A stretch of 64,000 bases of DNA from Rhizodiscina lignyota (lineage: Eukaryota): the NCBI GenBank assembly GCA_010015805.1, contig ML978132.1, positions 806,001-870,000 of the forward strand. Reading direction: 5' to 3'. Positions 41,260 to 59,162 of this stretch are shown here, piece by piece. Each line of letters begins with the position of its first letter. Within the stretch, counting starts at the first letter, position 1. Below the pieces are notes generated by a model. It searched no databases, was not told where the DNA came from, and was given only the letters and a program-made list of their open reading frames with translations. A program made the position numbers and the translations under genes.

Positions 41260-44122
41260 CTCGAATAATAAATAGAAATTATTTCAAAACAACGTGTCTA
41301 AAAGAGTGACATGGATTTGTAACGAGTGACTATCGAACACAGCGTAAAGAGTGACTGTGGTCGGTGAGGCAAAAAGAGATGGAATGAGAGAATTGGGGGA
41401 GCAGGTGCTAAGCTTTTGAATGCTCTCTGGGGGCCCTCATTTCCTGGGACATGCTCATGCTGATCTTTTTTCGACAGGAACGTCGCATCTTTGCTGCATT
41501 GGGCACAGGCGCTGGGGAGGAGGTGAAGGAGGCCAATGTCGTTGTGTGGCGCTGTCATCGCGTGTGCACCTGCTTGACCGGCCATCTTCGACGCCTCCGC
41601 CACGAGCACCAAGTAATTTCAACAATGACAGCCCTGAGAATCCTCGCGCTAAAGCGGCCAAGAGAGACGCCGAAAGCTTTTCTCTCCGCGTTTCGATAGC
41701 CTTCTCCCGAGTGCGAGAAGTCGATTCAGAGCGAGCTCGGGAAGCAGTGCCGGTGGTGGAAGTGTGTCCAGCGCACTGTTTGCATATACGACGTCAGGAG
41801 TAGTCGCATCGTATACATGAGCAACCCTGGGCTCTACAGGCGTCGGCGAAGATCTTCATGTCAGTTAGCAGAGATGCCGGAAGTGCTTCTGCCGCTGAGC
41901 AGCTGTCCGTCGAATTGGACGGTCTTGGGCACGATTTGGATCACATCTTTTCACAGTCTACCGCCATGCATTCGAGCAGCGTTCGATGCCAATTTTGGCA
42001 CATTGTTCTTGGACGTCAAGGAATTGTCCCCAGAGTGACGCCGTCCAATGCCGGAGAGGGAGGAGAGTTTGGAGACGGTTGGAGCTTGTGCGCCGCGTGC
42101 GCCGTGCATCCGCGAGGCACGCCGTCGGGGCGGGATGGCGGCTAGCGAGCGACTCCATGACTTCAGCTGTCGCGATGTGGAGATGAGAGTGCCTGCAAAA
42201 CACGACGTGCTGCGTGAGACCCTGAATCACAATGCCGGGCTAGAGCGCACTGCGCAGAGCCTCGACCGGCTTGTCACAGTCACGGCGCTTGAGCGCGGTC
42301 AGCAGCGCGACGCTGTGCCGGCGGCGTCGAGCGAGAGAGGAGGTCGAAGGAAGGTTTGCTGCATTCCGCTCCGCCCCTTTTCCCCTGACGCTCAGGCGGA
42401 AGCTGCCAGCCCCTGCCTGCCGTCCCAAAGCGGTGGCTGCTTGCGCCCGGAAGGGACAACGGCGATGGGGTTGTTCTGCACTCGCAGCCGAGAGATGCGC
42501 CTCCGATTCACATATTCGCCGCGCACCTGGCCGCTGCATGGCGCTTTTAACGTGTTTTACTGCGTGCTTGTCTCTCTTGTGCTCACGCGACGGCGGAATG
42601 CCTACCTTCATGAATACCTTCGCGATGGGATGCCTCTCGTGCTGCGACGGACAACAGCGCCCGCCCTTCCACTCACCATTTACCAATTTGGATGTATAGC
42701 GAGATGTGCGTCAGGGTCTCACTCCTAATCGATTGCGCTTCCCAGATTTCGCCATCTTTTCTTAGAACAGTCGAGCACTGGCACTCCGTGCGCACCGAAA
42801 TGATGCCGCATCCTTACGAGCGCCTCCGAGCCCGCGGAAGCACGCGATTCCTTCCACTCCACGTGAGCCTGACTCTCGAAGCGCCATTGGAGATTCCTTC
42901 GGCCTCCCTTTTGCGGCTCTTCGCACGACACTGTTATTTCCGCGGGGGATATGACCACAAATTTAGTCTTGGGGCGACGGAAGCGGTAGGCACGGGGTAG
43001 GTAAGACGGACAAACTGCTCGCTTCTGCTCTCGAATTGTTCCATACTGCGAAATGAGACTGGCTCGCATATACGGATGAAACAGCCATTATTGGTGCCTC
43101 TCGACGGCAGCAGGAAACACCGCAAATTTGAACTTGAACCCAATTTAATGCTTTTTACGTCTCCTTTTCACGATGCGTTGGCACCTCCAGCAACTATCCG
43201 CCATGCCTTTGACCTTGGATGCCGAGTCAAAGGACAAAATCGCCAATGCTTTTCCCAATAGCGCGACTTCATACCTGACAACTCTTCGGCGACCACTTGA
43301 GTTCAGGCCAACTTCATCAAACTTTCGTTCGCACTCCAAGACTATGGCCCACCATCGTATTGCCGGAATGCCTCGTATAGTCTCTCCTTCACGAGCCGCT
43401 ATTCTACTCTCCCGTCGTCCTTAGCATCACACGGTCGTCGCTCCAAGGATGCGAAGAAATCGGAGCTCTTCTCGTCCGTACGTAATCGTTTCCATGGCAC
43501 CAGACAGCCGAAGGAATCAGAGGACCACCCTTATCATTCTGGTAAAGGGAAACAGCAGCATCGTTCATACTTCATAAAGCCTGCATGGAGCAGGTGAGCA
43601 CCAAGATCAAAATCGTCCTTGAGCTTGAAGAGAATAATGGGGTTGGTAATCATCAGTGGGACCCATCAAGCGTCTCTAATGCTGCCTCTGCTTTTTGCTG
43701 TAATTCCAATTTTATCTCATCTTACGTTTCAAAGCACTAGTTCCTCATGCCAATGCGTGAGTACGAAGTGCTATTTCTTTAGCATCACTGCCCTCATTCG
43801 ATTTAAATGCCTTGGGAGAAACATGCAACAGAACATATGCTCTTTTACTTCAAGCACTACAAACAATATCTCTGGACTAGACAGAAGTGGCTAAACAATC
43901 ACAGCACTAGACGTCGTTACCTTTCGCGACGAACGAGCTCGGAATGGCCTGAAGTGCCAGCCAATCGCAACCTTCATCGTCTTTCCAAATTGACCGTCCC
44001 TTCTGCAAGACGCTTAGTTTAGCTGCTACCACGCTACTTTATCTATTTTTCCTCGCAGACTCGCGAAGAAATTACTAAGGGCTTCAAGAAGCCAAGCTCC
44101 GACATTGCACCCAGGACGAACA

Positions 44123-44500
44123 ATGGCGGGATTTGGATTCTCCATCGGAGACATCCTCACTGCGGGCAACTTCGCGCGGGATGTCTACAAGTCGTGTAAA
44201 CGTGCTGGCGATGACTCCAAGGCCATCACACGAGATGGTATCGTAACCCTCATATCAACATCCAACGTGTAGCTTTCAAATGCTAATTGACTTCGTGTAG
44301 TGGAAATGTTGCAGGCCGTCCTTCGCGAACTGTACGAAGAAGTCAGCAATCCAAGCTCCCTCATTCATCGTACCAATGCGGACCGGCAAGCACAGTTCAA
44401 GACAGTTGTGAAGTGATGCAAGAGAGATTTACAAGAGCTCGAGAAGATCCTGGCGAAATTCGAATCCCTCGGAACGATAAACCTTCGAACCCGCCATCGC
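44123..44500 (+). pseudogene. Fungal N-terminal (SesA/HeLo-like, STAND-associated) domain gene with a premature stop
   Basis: ATG 44123, intron 44238-44300, protein MAGFGFSIGDILTAGNFARDVYKSCKRAGDDSKAITRDVEMLQAVLRELYEEVSNPSSLI..VVK*CKRDLQELEKILAKFESLG. TGA at 44414-44416 interrupts a motif that continues in the same frame. Confidence 0.75.
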
Positions 44501-45098
44501 TTGGGGCTGGATTGTTACGGGTCTCACTTGAAGATCTCGTGGAGCAGTGAAGAGGATTGTATTAAAGGTTTGGAAATTTGATCTACAAGTGGGAAGCCTA
44601 AAATAGAAGATGAGGTATTCCGAGTCCCGATCAGGCTTGGGATGGGTGCCTTGAAAAGGCGCGCAGGTGAGAAGTGGGAAGGGCGTACGCACCATATACA
44701 GCACCATCGTTGCAAGTATGAAATGGTTCGTTTTACTCGTCCTCACTCTATGGACCAATTAAATCTAACAAATATTCCTAGGATCTCCATCCACGCTTCC
44801 GAAAAGAGGGAAGTGATCTATCCACCACGTCCACATCTCCTTAAGAGAAGCTCTTTATGGCTGGAATCGGGTTGTGACTTGTGAAAACGATTGATGCTAA
44901 AAGCGTCTCGATCAATAATATTGGCGTTACTCTACCGACGTGGACACATCGCCACCCTGGGCTTGGTTTACCGCTTAAAGATTCCACACAACGGGCCGAT
45001 TTGATTATCTGTGTAAAAATTGAGTTGACTACAGAAGAGAAAGAATTGGTTAATCAAGTCGACTTGTGAACACAATTATGCGATCTTCCATGACCCGA

Positions 45099-46942
45099 TC
45101 AACTCCGTAGCTGACGTTGACTCATCTCCGCCGTGAAGAAGCTGTCCTTGCTCTCTTCCAACATGTTGTTCGCTTCCAAAGTGTCAAAATTCCAAGATCC
45201 GCACTTCCAATGTGCTCCGGTCGTGAGTATTTTCAAGCTCAAGCCTTTGATTTGAGTAATTTGCCATAAATGCAGAACCAATCGGCGAGAGCATTCATCG
45301 ACGCGATCAATTATGATGAAGCTCTGTTTCTCCTCAGCGAACTCAGCCCATCGCTCTAGAAGCTTCTTAAGTAGCGCCCGTGTCTTCGTTAACGCCTCCT
45401 GTGTTTTCTCGGCACTGTCAAGCGACTTGAAGTGAGCACTCTCTGTAATAACCATGTGCTTGTTGTCGTTGTAAAATGGTTCGCTCCACAGCAGGATTTG
45501 GAAAATGAGATGGGACCACAGTTCCATCTCGAGAGCGACTTCATCGCCCGAGTCGTGCTGTCGCTTTAATTTCGAAAGTGAATAGAATGCGGCAGTCCCG
45601 TCACGCTTCTTGACGTCGAGGAACAGACTGGGCGTGGCAGGAGACAGCCAGCACTCTCCATGACTGTTAGTTTGGACATGTGCATTATCGCGGCCGATGA
45701 GGAGTAAGAGACCAGATCGTTCCGAGTTCTTCCACTTGGCGTATATTTCGTTTGCATCAAGCAGACCCAAGCTCACTTGCTCCAGTTGCCAGGCACTACG
45801 AGTTCGCTTTCGCGGCGAAGGTTTTGGCTTGCAGTAGCGCTCCAGTTCGGCAAGAAACGTTCGGGCATATTCGGAAGCATTAAAGCGCTCTCTGATGCTC
45901 AAATTTCTCTGAAGCTCATCGGTGATATGTTCTGTTCCCATAGTTAAAGCAATAGACATGGCGAGATAGAATGAGAGCCTTACTTTCGCGTTGCTTTTCT
46001 TCTCTATCGTTCGCAGCCTTGATGCTCGCGTTTGTGGTTTCTATTGTCTCTGTTCTCGTTTTTATTGTTTCGGTCGTGGTCTGGATTGTATCCGTTGTGG
46101 TCTGAATAGTTTTGGTCCTAGCTTCGATATCCTTAAGAGAACGGAGAGCATCAACAAAGCTCTCCTCCATCATTTCGCGCATAGCAATCTTGATCTCTTC
46201 TGCTACTCTGTTGAGTTTACTCTCTGGATTATCCACAGCTACTTTCTTGATTCTGACTGGTTGTCACGAGCTTCGTTAGTTGGACAAATTCATCATCACA
46301 AGTGAGATTTGCAAAGGAGTTGTTGCCTACAGAGAGTGCCCCTGTTGTAATATTGATATATCTCATCAGCAAGCTGTGTTGTTAGTCGACACACTTCTCT
46401 TGTCCATTTCTTAACAGGCTCGCGCTCTTTTGCGCCCTTCACCATACGGTCCAAATTCTCGGCTCTTCCAACCCAGTCTCCGAGTACCTTCAGCAGCCCT
46501 TCGATCTTCATTTCCTTCGCCCGTTTTCTGGCGGGTACCTGGGACATGAGCTTTCAGCTTGCCAGAGTGAAGCAGGAGGTAGACTCACAGCCAAAGCCAC
46601 CAGTAATATACCTGTGGCAATCCCGCCATACTGATTGTCAACTCCTTTTGCGATCTCCGTCAAGCCATTATAATTTTCCAGGAATGACTGTGCTATTCCA
46701 GCGTACGTTTCGATTTTGTGGCCAATGTTTCTGATTACTTGGTCTTCTCGTTTCTTTCCAAGTTCCTCAAGGCTTTGACTTGCAAGGTTCAATCGCCTGC
46801 GCGCATCTTGAAAGCCATTTCTCTGCTCTTTCTCAACCTCAATTCGGAAGTCGAAACTCAGGTGTACAAGAAGTCCAGAAGAGCCTGGAACGGCTTTATC
46901 ATTCGCGATGTGGTGACCTGGAACGGCTTTGGTCCCTTCCAT
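45099..46942 (-). CDS. NACHT/STAND-like protein with a helical N-terminal domain, heptad repeat and degenerate P-loop
   Basis: Three GT-AG introns (46588-46539, ~46331-46258, ~45983-45932) join four ORF pieces in frame. WKNSERSGLLLLIG, LIFQIL, Walker-B-like FIIIDRVDEC and LKILTT are present, but there is no GxxxxGKS/T. Confidence 0.7.
46030..46120 (-). repeat. 21-nt coding tandem repeat (IQTTTDT/IQTTTET/IKTRTET/IETTNAS heptads)
   Basis: Seen directly in the translation of ORF 45916-46236. Confidence 0.75.
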
Positions 46943-48125
46943 CAGATGTGAATCATAACACTGTCGGTTGGCTTATTCCGCATGGTACGATATGTCAAAT
47001 GCCCACTGCTACTCTCCCTGTTTCCTTTCTAATAGACTTTTAGGCTCCGGCGGGGTATGCAGGCAGCCATTGACGAAATGGCATATGTCATTGAATGGTC
47101 CTTCCTCCACCGTGGCTGTGTAGAAAATTCTGCGGCTGAGCCTCATCGACCACGAACATATCAGGACAAGCAAGATGACTACATTTTCATGGAAGATAGC
47201 TTCTCTGATTATTCCCAGCTACGTACAGCTTCAACTGGAGCGGTTGGCCGGCGCGGGCCGTCGAATGGCGTAACGTGTAGCTGATGCCGATGAGTGCTAC
47301 GACACTTCAGGACTGAAGCGGCCGCCTTGCGGTGCGTCTGACAAGTTCTTGTCTCATCATCCATTATCGCACTGTCCGCATGTGGCCTGATTTGACATAT
47401 ACAGTATGGATTGCCTTATCAGGAGACAACTTCGTGTCTGCTAATGCACACCCATCATAGTGGCGTGCAGAATCGAGCGAAGGAAGGATTGGCTTCAGAG
47501 CAGCCGACCTCTGCAGCCCGGATTTCCGCCCCTTCTTCAATACGCGTAAGGCTGGAGAGCAGTCTACCCAATTACGATGAAATTGACCCCTCGCTTTGAT
47601 CAGAAAGATGACCATTGTTCAATCTCAGAAGGCTGAGGAGGCTTGCACCGGCCGGGGTGCAACCCCGCCTCTCGACATGTCCGTTCTGCCTCAGTTGCTT
47701 TTCAGGCCACATCCATTCCACCCACGGCAGTATCGCCGATCAGTTGAGGCTTAGAGCGTCTACATAAAGCGAATGAGCATGCTGCGTTCTCATGCGTCCA
47801 CTCGCTTTCAGCTCATGCATACTCTATGTGTGGGCGGAGCATGCTCAAGCGAATTGTTCGCTTTGCCTGAGTGGACGAAGCGGCTACTTGGCCCCTTCAC
47901 TCCCTTTAGAACTAAGCTGAAGGTACCCGGCCTTCCTATGAGGCTCTGCAAACTCAAACCGTCTAGCAACGGGCCCATACTTGTGCGAAGAGTCCAAGGA
48001 CTGTCATGATGAACAGAGATTCCACCAGACAAACCTCGAGTGCGCTCTCGTAGCCTCATTTCGAAAACGCATAAGAGGAGTATACGTTGTAATAGCATGA
48101 GCTTGAAAAACAAAACCGTGGCGTC

Positions 48126-50788
48126 ATGCTGACTGAAACACAGTGCAATATGGCTTCCAATCATGTTGGAAAACTTGACGAGTCACAATCGAAAGAGATG
48201 GAGAATTCTTCTCCTCTCGCTCTGGACGGACAATTTAAGAAATTCCTTGAAGCATGCAAAGAGCAAAATATTCCACTTACCGACGAGCAATGCAAGATTT
48301 TCGGCAAAATTCTAGAGAATGACTCATCATCTAAAGATGCTGAGTGCACTGAGAAGGCGAACGGGACTGAAGAGAAGAAAAATGCCGACGATGAAAGAGG
48401 TACCAAAATCGAAACGAATGGCGAAAAGAACGACGATGCTGAAGACAGTGACGATTCTAAAGAGAAGAGCAAGTTCCAGATAGGCCGAGTGCAATACGTC
48501 GCCGAGTATGACATGGACGGAGACAAAGGTCCGCCGCCGAAGCCCGTGTGGCCGCCGAAAAAGCTCGACCCCGAAGCAGCCAACTGTGCCTTTACCATCA
48601 AAGAGATCATATCGAAGAACACTGGCGAACGAGATCATTATGAGCTTATCGTCGATGACCCGAAGCTCAGGAAGCTGATGAAGACTGCTCTAGAGTTGTG
48701 GTTTGACCATGTCGCGGACCCTTGGGGTCAGTCCAAGCCCGTCATAATGGACGATGACGGGTTGCTAATCCGGAACTGGAATAAATTGGAGGAAGCTGCA
48801 AAAGGCGATGATTCGGCTGCTCAAGACCTTCGTACGCTTATGGAGCACTATCAGTTGATTGCGCAGAAGAACTTCAAGGCATCTCAGGCTCAGAAAGACG
48901 AGAAAATGATTGATTTCGAGGGCTTGCGATGGCTTTTTCGACCTGGCGACAGTGTTATTGTCAACAGAGCGTTCATCGATGAGCCGCAGCTGTTTGTCGT
49001 TGAACATTATGGCGAAGGATGGATGGACACCGACGAAGCATACAGTGTGACATGCCGTGGCTACGACTGGGACGGCACGAAGCTCTTACGCCAAAAATAC
49101 ATACTGTACCTCAGAAAATTTAGTCGGGACATGAAGATTCAGAACCTGGACTTTTATCCTCTGGAAAGCTACGCTGGGGATAAAGACGAGCTGAAGAAAT
49201 CGCTTGTTGAGCGAGGATTAAAGTACTGGGATATATGCACAGAGATCAACGAGGCGTCAGGGCGGTCAAACAGGGTCTTTGCTCATACAGGTGTCATGCT
49301 CACTCACAAGGGGGACGCATATGATCTTGACAGGAACAAAGATTGGAAACTTACTCCCCGAGATGCTGTTACCAGAAAGGAGACGGTGAGCTGGTTCTGC
49401 ATCAAGTTTAACTGTTCCTACTAACCGCGTTCTACCACAGTCCGAACAGGTGGTTGTGGACTTCAAGTCATTTCGGAAGCCAGGCCTTGGCCCCGGTGAC
49501 CTTTCACTTGGCAACCTTGTGCCAGAGCCAACGGATTGCTGCTGGTGTCGCCTCTGCTCGAACGATGGGCAATGGGCAACCTGGGAAGAGGAATTTGAAA
49601 GTACCATGAAAGCCTTTCGCAGCGGCGACAAACTCCCAGAAGAGCTCCCAACGGGCGCTAAAGAAATTCTTGCCCTCCTGCCTCCTCGAGTCTTGGGATA
49701 CGCTCTCCATGAGAAAGAATGGGCACAGTTCAATGTCAAAGCTCTGGGTCCTGTACAGTGGGAAGGCCAGAAGCAAGCTTGGAAGAATTTGGAGCTTGAT
49801 CCTCTTGAAAAGGAGCGTATCAGATTGCTTGTGAAAAACCATATCCTATTGCGAGAGGGGAAGAATAAGGTGAGACCAGAAGATCTCGTGGGAGATCTGA
49901 TCGGTGGCAAAGGGCAAGGCCTTGTGCTTCTCTTCCACGGTAAGCATAATTGCCGAGTGGTTCGCTTGAAGCATTGTTGATTCCATGTCACAGGTGTACC
50001 TGGCGTCGGCAAAACAATGACTGCTGAGGCATTAGCTGAAGAAACGAAGAAGCCCCTTCTTAAAGTTGGCGCAAAAGAGCTTAATTACAGCAATCTTTCG
50101 TTCACAAGTACTCAACTGGAGAAATATTTTGACCTGGCCAAGGATTGGGACGCTATCATGCTCATGTACGAAATTATGAAAACCGTTGATGGTAGCATGC
50201 TGACAAAGAAAGTGATGAAGCAGACGTGTTCCTGCGTGATCGAATAAACTTGGACTCACTTGAAGCTGGACTGGTTTCGGGCAAGTACTCTGCCGGACCT
50301 TGGAGGGACTGGACAGTCGCTGACAGTAAAGCTGCACAGAGATGCTGAGAGTTCTTGAATACTTCCAAGGGGTTCTGATCATGACAACGAACCGCATAAA
50401 GGTTATTGATCTGGCCATGCAATCCCGCATTCATCTTGCTGTCCTCTATTCCGAACTTGAGGGCAGCCGAGCGAAGAAGGTGTGGCACAATTATAGGAAC
50501 CAGTTGAAGGCCGGAAACTCTACGGAAACCGAGATTAATGAAATCAAGAGATGGATCGATGAAAGAGATGATGCTCTGGAACCGGACGGCTTGAACGGGC
50601 GGCAAATTCGCAATATCTTCACTCTTGCCCAGATCTTGGCGCAAGAGAATGACGGAAAGATTACTCTGGCCCACATCAAGGAGATGTGGAGATCGACTTT
50701 CATGTTTGGACGGCAGCTTAGAGATTTTGTCAGCACAGAACAGGACAAATTCATCGTTGGAAAGAATGATGGGAAGAAGGTGAAGTGA
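48126..50788 (+). CDS. Fungal AAA+ ATPase with a long N-terminal domain (DUF7025-like architecture)
   Basis: After splicing (49386-49440, 49940-49993, 50166-50212, 50281-50339): DLIGGKGQGLVLLFHGVPGVGKT (Walker A), IMLIDEADVFL (Walker B), LRVLEYFQGVLIMTTNR, SRIH, LNGRQIRN. Start is at 48126 or 48150. Confidence 0.9.
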
Positions 50789-52104
50789 GAGTGGCATATC
50801 ACAGATACCTTCCACATCTGCTCTTTTCTCTCCTTGCTCTGTATGGATCAAAGCCTTGACCTGTTTCAATGTAAAGATTGAGGAAGTAATCTCTCTATGT
50901 ATTGAACAGACTTATGGATCCAATATCGACCACCATCAATTATGTTGATGCCTGTGTCGCACGAGAGAAAAAGAAGGGAGAGTTGCACTGTATTGCGGAG
51001 TTCGGGGGTTCTAACCTAATTGGGCGCAGTGACTTGAGATTGACATTGGTGGGATCCATTGACAATTTCAAAATTCTAAGAGACTTAAGCGTCCAGGCGT
51101 GGGTTTGCAGTGGACCCACAGCACCAACTCATAGAGTCGTCTTCCTCGAATAGCTCGATGGCATAACATAAGTTCGAAGCTCAAGATTTAAGATATGCCA
51201 AGCTCCACCGCCAAGCACCAACACGGGATTGCCGCCAGCCAAGAGCCCTCCGCGAGAGTCCGCCCGTAGCTGAAACGTCCTTTATCCCACGCGTGCTCGA
51301 TCCATTGGACATCAAAAACTCTCTTCAAGCTGATTTACTCACGAACTCCTCGATTCAGCCTCATCGAACCCGCTGTCCAACTACAACGGCCCATTTCGTA
51401 TTCTGAAACGTTCAGCTCCATTCACCAGTCTCAAATTTCATGTCTCCGATGTCACTCGAATGAGAGTCTATTTTCGGACGCAACAACATTGCTGGACCAC
51501 TGTCGATCAACCCTTTTGACACGACTCCGCTCCCCCACGTCTGCTCATGGCTTGAGCTACGAGAGATTCATGTTTGCAGACCCAGGAGCGTGAACCTGGA
51601 GCGGAATGAGCCGGCAATGCTTCGACAACCACCTTCAAGGCAGAAAATCGATTGTCCCCGGTATCCCATGCTCCGGCATGAAATGAAGATTGCCATTAAT
51701 TACCGGAAGAGTGTTAGTGACAGCTCCAAAGAACACCTCATACCCACCAGCCAAACGCCTTCGAGAGGAACTAGGTCTTTACGAATCAGTTGTACCCCCA
51801 AAGCTCATGGGCAGGCAACATTCGTGGCTATGCTACAACCAACATCGGCGTTGTTGCGGCGATGGCACTATTCAAGTCCACAGGCAATTCCATCGCGCAC
51901 CTTGTCTTCAGAAGTAATGGAGCTTCCGGCGGAACTATTCCGGAGAAATGTAGCAGCCCATCGCTCTTCGAGCAAGTGGCCTGAAATGAAATATAAGTAT
52001 CTGGCATCTCCTGCGAAATACTCACAGTTGGCGGTGCTACCAAGCTTACAGATTCTTCCCACTGCATTTCTTTGTTGTCAATCTTTATCCATCATTTTCT
52101 GACG

Positions 52105-53679
52105 ATGGTTCACATCACTTCCTCCCGCACTTGTGTGCCTCTGCTACTACTCTCATTGCTACAATGTGCATCTGCGCGGCCATCCCATTTTTACCTCCTT
52201 CCTCGGCAAGCAAATCAGTCATTGGCAGCAGCCAGTGCATCTACCGGGGATCTCACAGCCGATTCAAGCTGTAAAGATCTCTCCGACTACCAATTCAACA
52301 ACAAGCTTCAGCTGCAAGCGGACTTCTGGGATAAGACGGACACTTCCGACATGCTCAAAGATTGGTGTGATGGTACATCGGCATGTGGCTCGAACTTTGC
52401 ATCTGCCTTTGCCGATCCCTGGGGAATGGGACAGAGCTTCTCATGCTCAATGAATGTTCCATGCGGCAGGCCGGACTGTTCGAATATGCAGGATGACACG
52501 GCGCCAAAAAGCGGAGCAGCTTATGAAGTCATGGTATCGCTCAGCAACGTCAACCAATACCTCGTCAACCTTCGAGCAGCTCTGAATCAGGGTAAAGACC
52601 GATTCAATGGACTGTCAACAGCGCTGCAGCAGACTTTCTGGCCCAGCCACAACCCAGACAATCTGTTGTTGGGCGAGATTATGAATGGCGGTCAAGCTGC
52701 CATGGGTATGATTGCTGCCATTGCTGGAGGTCCCATGGCTGGCATCGCCAAGGAACTCGTGAACGGAATGCTCAATGGTGTTTACCGCGCAATGACCGGC
52801 AAGGATGAATCACTCCAGAACCTGGCCAGTATGGAGCAAGAGACCGATGAGTGGTACCAAGGCTGCCTCAATTCTGTTAATACGCTCAATGATGACCTGA
52901 TGACGCTCGGATCCCATGACGGCATGTCGGTGCAAGACCTCCTTGCCGACGGTACATGGCTGGATTATCGCGACCACCCAATTCTCAACACCGATGCCTC
53001 CAGGCCTCTGGTGCAAGAGGGCCAGCTTAACGATTTGATGTACCACTTCCTCCTCGGTCAGCTCATCAACTACTCTTGGAAGCAGCAAAGCACCTGGCTT
53101 GTAACGTACCCGATGTCCGAGGATGATTTCAACAGCCGCACATGGAATGCTGGCAGCAACGATGGCCGCCTCAAGATGTACTACGGCGGTACTGCATGGT
53201 TCTTCCAGAGCCTTTACATGGATGGCAACATTCCCACTGCTCAAAACCCTCCGGGCTGGGACAAAGTCGAAGATAACATGGGCGATGGCTTCGACGCTCA
53301 CTCAATTATCGTTTCGTCCGCAGACGGCTTCAGCGACTCCGGGTTCGACCACGACTTCAATACCAACTTCGACCAGTTCTTTTCTGAGCCCGATACCACA
53401 ACATGGTTAAGTGTCGGCCCGCGCGCCAGAGGCTACTTTAGCATTCCGGTCTGCAACCTCGCTGGATCAGACAATGTCGGTAGCTTGGATGAGCTGAACG
53501 ATTGGCTTGATTCTCCCGGCGATTGGTTTGCGGACGGCAGAGCCAAGTCGAGCTACTGCGCGTGCAAAGATACGACAGACCAAACAGGGAAACTGTTCTC
53601 AGACGCGTTCCCGTCGGATATGGGGCTACAGCTTACGGGTAATTGTGACCCTACGGAAACTCTACCTCCTGGACCTTGA
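52105..53679 (+). CDS. Secreted acidic, Cys-containing protein of unknown function (~524 aa)
   Basis: Intronless ORF with signal peptide (VPLLLLSLLQCASA), clustered N- and C-terminal cysteines and a central Gly/Ala-rich hydrophobic segment. Confidence 0.8.
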   Translation: MVHITSSRTCVPLLLLSLLQCASARPSHFYLLPRQANQSLAAASASTGDLTADSSCKDLSDYQFNNKLQLQADFWDKTDTSDMLKDWCDGTSACGSNFASAFADPWGMGQSFSCSMNVPCGRPDCSNMQDDTAPKSGAAYEVMVSLSNVNQYLVNLRAALNQGKDRFNGLSTALQQTFWPSHNPDNLLLGEIMNGGQAAMGMIAAIAGGPMAGIAKELVNGMLNGVYRAMTGKDESLQNLASMEQETDEWYQGCLNSVNTLNDDLMTLGSHDGMSVQDLLADGTWLDYRDHPILNTDASRPLVQEGQLNDLMYHFLLGQLINYSWKQQSTWLVTYPMSEDDFNSRTWNAGSNDGRLKMYYGGTAWFFQSLYMDGNIPTAQNPPGWDKVEDNMGDGFDAHSIIVSSADGFSDSGFDHDFNTNFDQFFSEPDTTTWLSVGPRARGYFSIPVCNLAGSDNVGSLDELNDWLDSPGDWFADGRAKSSYCACKDTTDQTGKLFSDAFPSDMGLQLTGNCDPTETLPPGP

Positions 53680-56036: not shown

Positions 56037-58166
56037 TCATTTCTGCGGGCTGATTCGCACCTCCTCTGCCGATACGGAGCCATTGGTGACGACGAATCCG
56101 ATACCACCGTGGCTGAACCGGTCATCGCTCGCCTCCAGAACTCCTTTCCCATCAATCTGTGCTTTCAGGGTCGTGTCAACGACGGTGACAGCCACTTCGT
56201 ACGACCGATCGAGCTCCCATTTGAACTCCGCACTGGCAAGCTCCACTTTGGATCGATCGATTGATTTCACAAATGCAATGCGCCCACCAGACGTGAATAA
56301 CAGAGCATACCATCTCCGAAGCCCTTGGACACGTACCGCGACACCGCTCGGCGCTCCAAGGTTTACTCTGAAGTTCGAGACGGTTACCGTATAATTTCTC
56401 CACTCGCGCGTCCCGTAGCTTATGATCCCCTCTCCATCGTTCTGAGCAACGTAAAATGCTGGCCCCTGGTTCCATCTCTTGATCTCGGAGACTCCATTGA
56501 CCCACGCTTGACGCCAGAAGTCGCTTGGTCCGTTGAGTGGGCGCCGGAGCGTCAATTCAGGCGTGCTGTCCCAGCGGAGATAGTCCAGCCATACCGTGCC
56601 GTTGAGGTGACCAGAGGGAACGGAAAGCGCTAAGCCGAGCTGCTGAATTGGCTGGCTATCCATCGTGTCTGGTATTGTCCATTTGAGGATATCTGCATTG
56701 CCTGGTGCAAGTGTAAGAACGGCGGGTGCATCGCCCGTTACCAGCTCATCCCCTTTACTGTACACCTTCAGTCGGAGCCTCACATCGACAGAATTGCTGT
56801 TGCTCTTGTCGGCGCGGATAAGAGCTTGCACAGTCTGTCCAGGATACACCAACGGGCTGGCCATGAGATCGTACGTCTTCATCTTGACGATCTCCGGCGG
56901 CGTGAATGTCTGCGTCAGAACTTCCACTGAGCCCGAAGCTCTCGTCAAACCCTTTACTCGGATAGCCAAGGCCGATTGACCTGTGGCATCTTTGCCATTC
57001 TCGACTTTCACGAGATCTGGCGTCAGGCTGTGCCGCGTAGCCATGAATCCCTGGACACTTCCGGGAAGAGAGAAATGGAATTGTGCACCCTGCTTCGGCG
57101 CATCAAGAGGCTTCTCATGCGCAAGCTGTCGACCCATATTAACAATATCATAGGCTATCCGAACCGCATTGTTGATCGAATACCCGCCATCTGCACTGGA
57201 AATGAGCGCTCGATCTGCAAGCGGCCCACGCCAGTCTGGTCCGCCTTCGAATGCATTCATGCCGTGCATGAGCGCAACAAGACATGCAATATTCCCCGAG
57301 TTGCAGTCAGTATCCCAACCGCAAGTGTTGATGATATGCATGGCTTCGTGGAAGGAGTCTCCGCCGTACACGAGAGAGAGGACCATGATACCATGATTGG
57401 GCATGACATGGCAGTTTCCACAATATTTGTGATAGCCATACTTCTCCTCGATCCGCTCTCGTGTCTTCAGCCAGTCCTTGTCGTCGCGACACCACTCGCG
57501 GATTTCGGCTATCATTTTGGCGAGCTGAGACTCTCTTGGAATGAAACTGAGGCCGGTGTCGAGAAGATGGTCTACGTTCTTGGATACGAAAGCTTCTGCT
57601 TCCATAGCAGCCAGGAGCATGGCAGCATACACAGACTCGCCATCGTGGCTCACCTTCCCTGCCCTCTCAGCAAGTTTAGCAGCGAGCTCAGGGTTGCCCG
57701 GTGCCACCATCCCCCAGCCATCGATGAAGATCTGCGCTCCAATCTGCTCCGCAACTGTTTTACCGTTGGTCTCAATGCTGCCACTCCCAGGCGCTCGAAT
57801 GCCCTTCTTCAGATTCAAAAATGCTGTGTGCTCGGTGCTGATGCCATTGCCGCCCCACCAGAATATGGAGCGGCCCTCGACGACATTGTTCAGCCACGTA
57901 TCTCCGATATTCTCGGACGTAATATCGGCGCTCACGCCGTGCTCCAGCAAGGCCCTCGGGAAGACGAAAGTGCCAGACACATCATCGTCAGTCACCACAA
58001 GTGGCACATCTAGCTTTTCATGAACATAGTACTCGATATGTCCAAGCTCTTTCAGAATCCGTTGATGCGTCCAGCCTTCGAATGGTCGTCCGAGATATAC
58101 GCCTATGAGTTTTCCAAGAACGCCTGCGTAGACTCGCTCGAGGTAGTCGGAGGGCAAGTCAGGCAT
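56037..58166 (-). CDS. ADP-ribosylglycohydrolase (DraG/crystallin J1 family) with C-terminal beta-sandwich domains
   Basis: Intronless 709-aa ORF: ERVYAGVLGKLIGVYLGRPFEGW, metal-binding TDDD, IGAQIFID, VSHDGE, GWDTDCN. Confidence 0.88.
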   Translation of the reverse strand: MPDLPSDYLERVYAGVLGKLIGVYLGRPFEGWTHQRILKELGHIEYYVHEKLDVPLVVTDDDVSGTFVFPRALLEHGVSADITSENIGDTWLNNVVEGRSIFWWGGNGISTEHTAFLNLKKGIRAPGSGSIETNGKTVAEQIGAQIFIDGWGMVAPGNPELAAKLAERAGKVSHDGESVYAAMLLAAMEAEAFVSKNVDHLLDTGLSFIPRESQLAKMIAEIREWCRDDKDWLKTRERIEEKYGYHKYCGNCHVMPNHGIMVLSLVYGGDSFHEAMHIINTCGWDTDCNSGNIACLVALMHGMNAFEGGPDWRGPLADRALISSADGGYSINNAVRIAYDIVNMGRQLAHEKPLDAPKQGAQFHFSLPGSVQGFMATRHSLTPDLVKVENGKDATGQSALAIRVKGLTRASGSVEVLTQTFTPPEIVKMKTYDLMASPLVYPGQTVQALIRADKSNSNSVDVRLRLKVYSKGDELVTGDAPAVLTLAPGNADILKWTIPDTMDSQPIQQLGLALSVPSGHLNGTVWLDYLRWDSTPELTLRRPLNGPSDFWRQAWVNGVSEIKRWNQGPAFYVAQNDGEGIISYGTREWRNYTVTVSNFRVNLGAPSGVAVRVQGLRRWYALLFTSGGRIAFVKSIDRSKVELASAEFKWELDRSYEVAVTVVDTTLKAQIDGKGVLEASDDRFSHGGIGFVVTNGSVSAEEVRISPQK

Positions 58167-59162
58167 GACTGATCTTGAAAACAATGCATAGAGAGCCACA
58201 AAGGCTTTGAAGTGCAGCTTCTTAAACTTGGGCTTTGGAGTTTCTAATCAGCTGTGAGAGAGTTAAACATGCGGACTGAGAGCGAGGGGATCTTTCCCCC
58301 GGCGGAATATTCCCAGTGAAAATGTTCTCCTTGTAACTTGTTAGACAAATCGGAGAACGAGACTTGGATGCTGAATGGTTCCTCGGTTATCGTGAAAGAC
58401 AATCAATTCATTCCGGCTCCATGTCAGGGTAACAAGAGCCTCAATGGATACAAGTAACCAAGATCAAATGCCCCGCGCTATCCCGGAGATAAAATGCGTC
58501 GGCGTCTTAACCCAAGTTGAGAGCTATGCATTCAAGGCCGGCCAAGCGCGGTGCAGCGTGTGGAGGTGCTCCATGCGGAGAACCCTGAACTGACTCGTGA
58601 ATTGTGGGGTCTGAGGAAACATCTGGAGCTTGAATGGAGAGCACCATAAAGCTTCATCTCTTCAACTGTTTAAATTTCTGATTTCTATCTGGAGTAATAC
58701 CTTGGTTGTTGAGGCAGACACTAGTCTAAATGGCATCGGCCATCGACTATCCTAAATATCTTCGAGGAGGGAGGAGTATATGCTGTACATGGAGTCAATG
58801 TTAGGGCAGGATGCTTGATCGACCAAAGTTGCCTAAAAACTTCCTTCATACAACGGCACATGATAATCCGCACCTGTGGTAGAAGGATCAGAAGCTAGCC
58901 TCCCAGTAGGCGCTGGATGTTAGTCGTAACGATCGGATATTGCAACATACGGAAATGCTTCCGTGATATGTATTGGATATATCATTCGCCTTTATGTCTC
59001 TGCAATTTCGCTAGCTCTAGGGCATTCCTTCCAATTCATTTGCAGTCACTCTCTACTTGTTCGCGTTTCAATTGCCCGAGACTTCGATAGCTCGTCAGAA
59101 GTGTGTTCCAATCGACGAAACGTCCATTCGTAAGAAATTGATTGAGATTGACACCTGTTACC

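Follow-up and report, generated by a model that had tools for sequence, protein, structure and literature searches.

The 64,000-nucleotide stretch of DNA analysed here (the window; assembly GCA_010015805.1, contig ML978132.1, positions 806,001 to 870,000 of the forward strand) comes from Rhizodiscina lignyota, according to taxonomy look-ups a wood-inhabiting dothideomycete, and consists of gene-dense eukaryotic DNA. Our subject is a pair of neighbouring genes at positions 45,099 to 50,788 of the window. The left gene encodes a protein related to fungal NOD-like receptors (NLRs) whose nucleotide-binding-like domain has no P-loop, and the right gene encodes an AAA+ ATPase. A first-pass annotation, made from the letters of the window, had described two intact multi-exon genes diverging from a common spacer of some 1.2 kb, and the exons and splice sites that we read in the sequence bear this out. 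The left gene and the spacer comprise the following features, in window coordinates:

45099..46942, minus strand: left gene, four exons, 555 amino acids, with a DUF7708-like domain, a coiled coil and a pseudo-NACHT domain (splice sites read from the sequence)
46159..46687, minus strand: DUF7708-like helical N-terminal domain, residues 86-220 (introns 1 and 2 included; Pfam, sub-threshold)
46064..46117, minus strand: 21-nt tandem repeat, 2.6 copies, giving T-x-T-I-x-T-T heptads (Tandem Repeats Finder)
45102..45931, minus strand: exon 4, a stand-alone pseudo-NACHT (NPHP3_N-type) nucleotide-binding-like domain plus a family-specific C-terminal strand (AlphaFold2 model)
45642..45695, minus strand: pseudo-P-loop GRDNAHVQTNSHGECWLS, between strand 1 and helix 1, at the site of Walker A (sequence and model)
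45291..45320, minus strand: Walker-B-like strand FIIIDRVDEC (sequence)
46943..48125, no strand: divergent intergenic spacer from ATG to ATG, 1,183 bp

The four exons of the left gene lie on the minus strand at 46942-46589, 46538-46331, 46256-45984 and 45931-45102, with the stop codon at 45101-45099; they are separated by three introns of 50, 74 and 52 nt, all of the GT-AG type, and the 555-amino-acid product is letter for letter the public hypothetical protein P0001. Both strings quoted from it in the first-pass annotation, GRDNAHVQTNSHGECWLS and the Walker B sequence IIIDRVDEC, are present. In Pfam scans the protein scores 21.5 bits against DUF7708 (PF24809), under the gathering cut-off of 25, and 20.3-20.7 bits against NPHP3_N (PF24883), under the cut-off of 24.8; the latter match covers profile positions 95-162 only, i.e. 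the Walker-B half. The T-x-T-I-x-T-T heptads sit inside a long predicted helix that would form a coiled-coil stalk. This helix spans residues 201-296 in a single-sequence AlphaFold2 (AF2) prediction of the full protein, which at a predicted local distance difference test score (pLDDT) of 43 is usable for the long helix only and reaches a pLDDT of 72-79 at residues 240-280. Homologues of the left protein show a helical segment of varying length at the same site. About 40 residues past the last core strand the protein comes to its end; winged helix, helical arm and repeats are all absent.

To collect relatives of the left protein, 1.84 billion representative proteins were searched exhaustively with phmmer, with the last exon (276 amino acids) as query and a threshold of E<=1e-3. 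Thirty proteins were matched, which, apart from the protein itself, share 25-32% identity with the query, and the exhaustive search found no homologue closer than about 31% identity in this representative library. Besides R. lignyota, seven named species contribute members: Clarireedia jacksonii, Sclerotinia borealis, Glutinoglossum americanum, Trapelia coarctata, Lepraria finkii, Alternaria alternata and Alternaria sp. MG1. These species fall into four classes of the Pezizomycotina, namely Dothideomycetes, Geoglossomycetes, Lecanoromycetes and Leotiomycetes (taxonomy look-ups for five family species; Sclerotinia and Alternaria placed according to general taxonomic background). Most of the other hits are open reading frames (ORFs) of 217-377 amino acids in metagenome-type assemblies which start inside the last exon, a pattern that intron-blind gene calling would produce.

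With these sequences the relationship becomes clearer than with the window protein. NPHP3_N is matched at E<=0.1 by 29 of the 31 family members (best E-value 6.6e-14), its gathering score is passed by 10 of the 13 members scanned singly (28-48 bits), and the part of the profile covered extends up to positions 4-161 of 164, thereby taking in the Walker A position. The DUF7708 cut-off is passed by all seven full-length homologues (46-89 bits). Judged by these profile matches, the left family is homologous to parts of fungal NLRs, namely DUF7708 and NPHP3_N. In the ESM Atlas, the nearest structure cluster (template modelling (TM) score 0.80) consists of 522-amino-acid Ascomycota proteins, 82% of which carry DUF7708 and 60% NPHP3_N; an additional 13 feature hits (0.90-0.96) point to Ascomycota clusters of 55-210 members, with NPHP3_N in just 15-26%. 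The left family probably extends beyond the 30 representatives matched.

The N-terminal domain is more difficult to place. ESM Atlas clusters rich in DUF7708 bear the automatic name 'Goodbye domain-containing', and a test of the N-domain for Goodbye (PF17109) and NACHT_N gave matches at E 0.3 only, in two Clarireedia members. Few N-termini are as common in fungal NLRs as Goodbye-like domains, which have no known function (Dyrka et al. 2014, PMC4986451) and for which a four-helix bundle like that of HeLo and MLKL is predicted (Wojciechowski et al. 2022, PMC9815663). The left N-domain may or may not belong to this Goodbye-like/HeLo/MLKL superfamily.

In every full-length member a C-terminal W-x-Q lies no more than about 30-40 residues from the end, and homologues of several species share the end point of the left protein. 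The minus-strand ORFs downstream of the left gene have no Pfam match. Since the homologues end alike and these downstream ORFs match nothing in Pfam, winged-helix and repeat domains are genuinely missing, and their absence does not reflect a truncated gene model. Pfam scans of P0001 and 13 homologues gave no repeat family, in keeping with the earlier statement that WD, ANK and TPR repeats are missing. At its very C-terminus (45102-45140) the window copy reads ...AEMSQRQ where nearly all relatives have W-x-Q (e.g. NWDQ, GWRQ), and by this comparison it is a divergent member of the family at that end.

Motifs were counted with a script over the 31 family members, the window protein included. The motif GxxxxGK[ST] occurs in none of the 31. 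The first-pass annotation had noted the missing Walker A, and it is indeed absent from the window protein, but this is not a private loss, for the whole family lacks it. In all 31 members strand 1 (LLLL.G) is followed by 12-15 variable residues and then by [CS]-W-[LIM]-S just before helix 1, giving a replacement motif G-x(12-15)-[CS]W[LIM]S whose middle varies in both length and sequence. W345, G358, W373, S375, Q423 and D487 (P0001 numbering) are invariant, and L354, L374, L425, R488, D490 and K512 nearly so. A Walker-B-like pattern hhhhDRx[DE] fits 29 of the 31 members, most of these ending in C, and the acidic residues of Walker B are kept, with an invariant first Asp and a nearly invariant D490. 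At the sensor-1 Arg position, which we take to be the site of the TSRP motif of canonical fungal NACHT domains, most members have D, G, S or N. Two members, P0002 (residue 143) and P0022 (residue 28), show G-K-S or G-K-T right after strand 1 and upstream of W-L-S, perhaps a remnant of the ancestral Walker A, in which case the insertion would have occurred after the Lys-Ser/Thr.

For the last-exon domain, AF2 prediction on the 31-sequence alignment resulted in a model with a pLDDT of 84.9 and a predicted TM score of 0.87. The modelled domain is a sandwich of alternating strands and helices, in which a strand (residues 73-80) is followed by a loop with a short helix, a helix (98-108) and further strands at 112-117, 203-208, 232-239 and 264-272 of the 276 residues; the replacement loop is modelled with a pLDDT of 76-88. 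Foldseek searches against the PDB gave 14 matches at E<=1e-3, all of which are AAA+ or STAND ATPases (HslU and, at E about 1e-4, NSF, ORC, Cdc6, the Sir3 AAA+-like domain and RdrA). A NACHT or P-loop-type fold had been proposed from the letters of the window, and by this check the left protein does have a fold of the STAND/ORC type. Alignment with VIA-align against 48,161 representative chains, which agreed with a run over the Foldseek top 1000 chains, returned the nucleotide-binding domain of Avs3 with Z 11.9 (191 residues aligned, root-mean-square deviation 3.7), ORC/Cdc6 with Z 10-11.7, TnsC with Z 10.8, Sir3 with Z 10.2, Dark with Z 10.1, CED-4 with Z 9.5, MalT with Z 8.5-9.8 and plant NLRs with Z 7.8-9.5 (MLA13, NRC2 and ZAR1 7.8-8.8 against the 48,161 chains). 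At the sequence level, phmmer and profile searches of PDB sequences with the left protein and its family gave a marginal match in the Walker-B region only, to Afg2/Cdc48, at E 0.018 and weaker.

The left protein represents a conserved derivative of NLRs, with an intact core of the STAND type and neither P-loop nor arms nor sensor. Like fungal NLRs built of DUF7708, NPHP3_N/NACHT and ANK, TPR or WD repeats, members of the left family have DUF7708 and a STAND fold, and they share with these receptors the Y..W helix that precedes strand 1, strand 1 itself and the hhhhD-x-x-D-E-C strand of Walker B. In contrast to fungal NACHT NLRs, the loop after strand 1 is 9-12 residues longer, ends in W-L-S and contains no GxxxxGK[ST]; arms and repeats are missing, and the sensor-1 Arg is gone in most members. 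In addition, an inserted coiled coil separates the N-domain from the core, and a family-specific strand closes the core. P-loop variants that arise by a single-residue change are known from a survey of fungal NLRs (PMC4986451), and the characterised fungal NLRs PLP-1 and NWD2 depend on their P-loop (PMC12881547).

The AAA+-like domain of Sir3 and ORC/Cdc6 (PDB 3te6, 7jgr, 4xgc) are among the best structural matches of the left domain (Z 10.2-11.7), whereas no sequence relationship to them was detected and the profiles connect the left family with NACHT-type NLRs. In Sir3, a textbook example, an AAA+-derived domain that does not bind nucleotide serves as a protein-interaction module. Plants and animals have NLR derivatives with a degenerate P-loop or no sensor, for example the sensor NLRs of plant pairs, truncated TN and CN proteins, and NLRP10. 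Like these, the left protein is derived from NLRs and has no switch or sensor of its own, the concept being that such proteins would act as partners or regulators of canonical NLRs; unlike these, the left family is fungal, has a different N-domain, has the whole P-loop swapped for a conserved loop and stops after the core.

Taken together, the left family, which is conserved in Pezizomycotina, would have derived from DUF7708 (Goodbye-related) NACHT-type NLRs. In this derivation the helical domain at the N-terminus, the coiled coil and, of the NACHT-type nucleotide-binding domain, its alpha/beta core would have been kept, and the P-loop, in most members the sensor-1 Arg, and everything past the core (the helical and winged-helix arms and the sensor repeats) would have been lost. 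A protein of this kind should be unable to act as a ligand-gated ATP switch. We put at about even the proposal that it is instead a nucleotide-independent scaffold or adaptor with a role in assembly; such a retained role is suggested because the new loop, the first Walker-B Asp and the coiled coil are conserved. Through the coiled coil and the pseudo-nucleotide-binding domain the protein might assemble with itself or with canonical DUF7708-NACHT receptors, and the assembly might present or modulate the N-terminal domain, in the way that pseudo-ATPase domains such as the AAA+-like domain of Sir3 serve for protein binding.

Several points weigh against this interpretation. The window protein itself lies under both Pfam cut-offs, and its assignment is transitive, via the family and the fold. 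The top 50 structural matches contain no animal NACHT structures (NLRC4, NLRP3), and the placement in the NACHT clade therefore comes from the Pfam profile, with the fold saying STAND/ORC-type and nothing narrower; the absence of these structures is no evidence against a NACHT origin. The first Asp of Walker B and the N-cap Ser of helix 1 are invariant, and a ligand or metal could still bind. The scaffold or adaptor role is one that we infer, and that the left gene works independently of the AAA gene is assumed by default.

The third of these points leads to an alternative in which the remodelled loop and the first Walker-B Asp still form a pocket for a nucleotide, a metal or a phosphate ligand, and the left protein works as a non-canonical switch. 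Three positions that vary little or not at all over four classes, the N-cap Ser of helix 1, the Gly after strand 1 and the first Asp of Walker B, would fit such a pocket, as would the G-K-[ST] directly after strand 1 in P0002 and P0022, and the loop is modelled at moderate confidence (pLDDT 76-88). P-loop chemistry, however, needs the Walker A Lys, and the loop has no conserved Lys but a bulky Trp and Leu just before the Ser. Moreover, the middle of the loop varies and most members miss the sensor-1 Arg. We consider a ligand pocket of this kind unlikely.

A further alternative to a left protein that works as a scaffold or adaptor independently of its neighbour involves the right gene, whose features are as follows:

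48126..50788, plus strand: right gene, five exons, 815 amino acids, with an acidic N-terminus, DUF7025, AAA and AAA_lid_13 (splice sites read from the sequence)
48888..49169, plus strand: DUF7025 (PF22942), exon 1 residues 255-348 (55.3 bits, cut-off 27)
49996..50016, plus strand: Walker A (G)VPGVGKT, the codon of the first Gly split by intron 2 (sequence)
50155..50225, plus strand: Walker B IMLIDEAD, broken by intron 3 at 50166-50212 (sequence; the public protein P0032 reads AIMLIDEADVFL)
50384..50428, plus strand: sensor 1 TTNR and candidate arginine finger, the R of SRIH (sequence)
50465..50650, plus strand: AAA_lid_13 (PF23232), a fungal AAA+ lid (27.8-29.5 bits, cut-off 27)

The exons of the right gene lie on the plus strand at 48126-49385, 49441-49939, 49994-50165, 50213-50280 and 50340-50785, followed by the stop codon at 50786-50788. 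The public model P0032 (344 amino acids) begins at codon 56 of exon 2 and leaves out 48126-49605. A search with exon 1 among longer proteins gave no homologue. The 420 codons of exon 1, which include DUF7025, align with the N-termini of both relatives of the right protein: P0033 of Bathelium mastoideum (34% identity over 135 residues, E 3e-25) and P0034 of Xylaria palmicola (25% over 291 residues including its DUF7025, E 2e-15). It follows that the public model lacks the true N-terminus. The first 119 residues of the right protein are acidic and poorly conserved. Intron 4 has two possible readings. The public GT-AG reading (50285-50331) adds GNCT, which both relatives lack, and a GC-AG reading (50281-50339) gives back LVSEMLRVLEY, as found in both relatives. 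The product has 815 amino acids in our model and 819 with the public intron 4.

The AAA domain (PF00004) scores 65 bits on P0032, against a cut-off of 21.2, and the solved sequences nearest to the AAA module are the D1 modules of VAT, p97, Afg2 and NVL (E about 1e-12). T211, T212, N213 and R225 are invariant in a three-sequence alignment of the right protein and its relatives. The earlier description of complete catalytic motifs holds for Walker A, Walker B and sensor 1, and the arginine finger is a candidate, the Arg of SRIH presumably taking this role by comparison with classical AAA proteins. The motifs and domains place the right protein among the AAA+ ATPases of the classical clade, in the fungal DUF7025/AAA_lid_13 family; it is motif-complete and predicted to be catalytically competent, and presumably a hexameric remodeller. 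It has all three domains of the fungal DUF7025, AAA and AAA_lid_13 family and nothing unusual compared with it.

The two genes could form a co-regulated two-component module, in which the AAA+ ATPase loads, disassembles or resets oligomers of its nucleotide-blind partner and thus provides the energy step in trans. The genes lie head to head with a shared upstream region of 1.18 kb, and the left family has no P-loop of its own while the neighbour has every catalytic motif; both points favour such a module. Divergent orientation, however, is common for neighbouring genes and is therefore no evidence on its own, and DUF7025 ATPases are widespread. A word-limited search with exon 2 gave three hits only, the relatives being from Bathelium and Xylaria, and neither is among the seven other species of the left family; likewise, no left homologue above about 31% identity was found, although Bathelium has an AAA protein 46-58% identical to that of the right gene. 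This species-overlap evidence is weak because 20 of the 30 left hits have no species label and the right-gene search was word-limited. A scan of metagenome contigs with the family members P0005 and P0022 yielded no confirmed locus. Complex prediction of the right N-domain (residues 120-420) and of the right AAA domain with its lid against the left pseudo-nucleotide-binding domain, run with no controls and no supplied alignments, scored 0.01 and 0.00 and speaks neither for nor against a complex.

The premise from which the first-pass annotation had argued, frequent cooperation of fungal NLR genes in linked pairs, refers to NLRs next to effectors with amyloid motifs (PMC9815663). In Sordariales head-to-head pairs of NLRs were rare and made up 13 of 225 two-NLR clusters (PMC12258605). 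In the known fungal pairing, an amyloid signalling motif is common to the N-terminus of the NLR and the C-terminus of the neighbouring effector (PMC9815663). The N-termini of those NLRs are short and motif-bearing, whereas that of the left protein is long and folded, and this mechanism does not apply to the locus in any obvious way. The link between the left and the right gene is adjacency alone and a pairing is unproven; a two-component module is, in our view, improbable, and the default reading, which we prefer, is that of two neighbours independent of each other.

A more far-reaching proposal would combine several of these elements. The left family might represent 'pseudo-NLR' adaptors conserved in filamentous ascomycetes and so far undescribed, in which an MLKL/HeLo-related (Goodbye-like) N-domain is mounted on a coiled coil and a NACHT core, the W-L-S loop binds a partner or a ligand other than ATP, and the protein co-assembles with canonical NLRs or gates them, with AAA+ energy supplied in trans at this locus. 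We found no description of the left family or of its pairing with an AAA gene in the available text of the literature on fungal NLRs, Walker A and the P-loop, and the terms 'DUF7025' and 'DUF7708' were searched for in the literature text and not found. Taken as a whole, this combination is quite unlikely. That the left gene is instead a relic, a truncated NLR fragment which has no function of its own and drifts towards loss, could be argued from its missing sensor and P-loop, its scores under the Pfam cut-offs and the loss of the family's C-terminal W-x-Q in the window copy, but is very unlikely given an intact frame over four exons with canonical splice sites, a confidently predicted fold (pLDDT 84.9), and an architecture, end point and invariant residues kept across four classes.

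The surroundings of the pair are unremarkable. In the spacer (46943..48125) direct or inverted repeats of at least 14 nt were looked for and none were found, and three spacer ORFs gave no match to Pfam. According to Pfam annotation of the window, the genes around the pair are of ordinary metabolic and transporter types, and no NLR cluster was seen; they encode an acyltransferase, major facilitator superfamily and sugar transporters, a Zn-cluster factor, a catalase, an ABC transporter and hydrolases, as well as glycoside hydrolases of families GH2 and GH18, a laccase, an ADP-ribosylglycohydrolase and an aldehyde dehydrogenase. The decayed HeLo-like gene of the first-pass annotation (about 44.1-44.9 kb) has no support from Pfam, in which several frames and pieces of 44018-44881 give nothing even at E<=10. 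On the plus strand at 44120-44881 there are short ORF pieces over three frames with one in-frame stop (MAGFGFSIGDILTAG...; ...CKRDLQELEKILAKF...), which by eye resemble a HeLo-like or SesA-type N-terminus, with no Pfam match; they are possibly a gene fossil. Directly downstream of the AAA gene, a 560-codon open frame (51997-53679, plus strand) has a signal-peptide-like start, MVHITSSRTCVPLLLLSLLQCASA, and no Pfam match even at E<=10, and its product is a candidate secreted protein. A 736-codon frame on the minus strand (56040-58247) encodes an ADP-ribosylglycohydrolase in its first 333 residues (2e-52), followed by about 400 residues that have no assignment.

Of the many fungal NLRs hardly any have been characterised, and within this repertoire the left family is a variant of moderate interest. 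In at least one census the motif GxxxxGK[ST] is what defines an NLR (PMC13449251), and motif-based censuses of this type exclude the left family by construction. As NLR derivatives, its members are candidate regulators of canonical receptors. In addition, a natural, nucleotide-independent derivative of an NLR could help to dissect how the N-domain and the core contribute to signalling or assembly without the switch.

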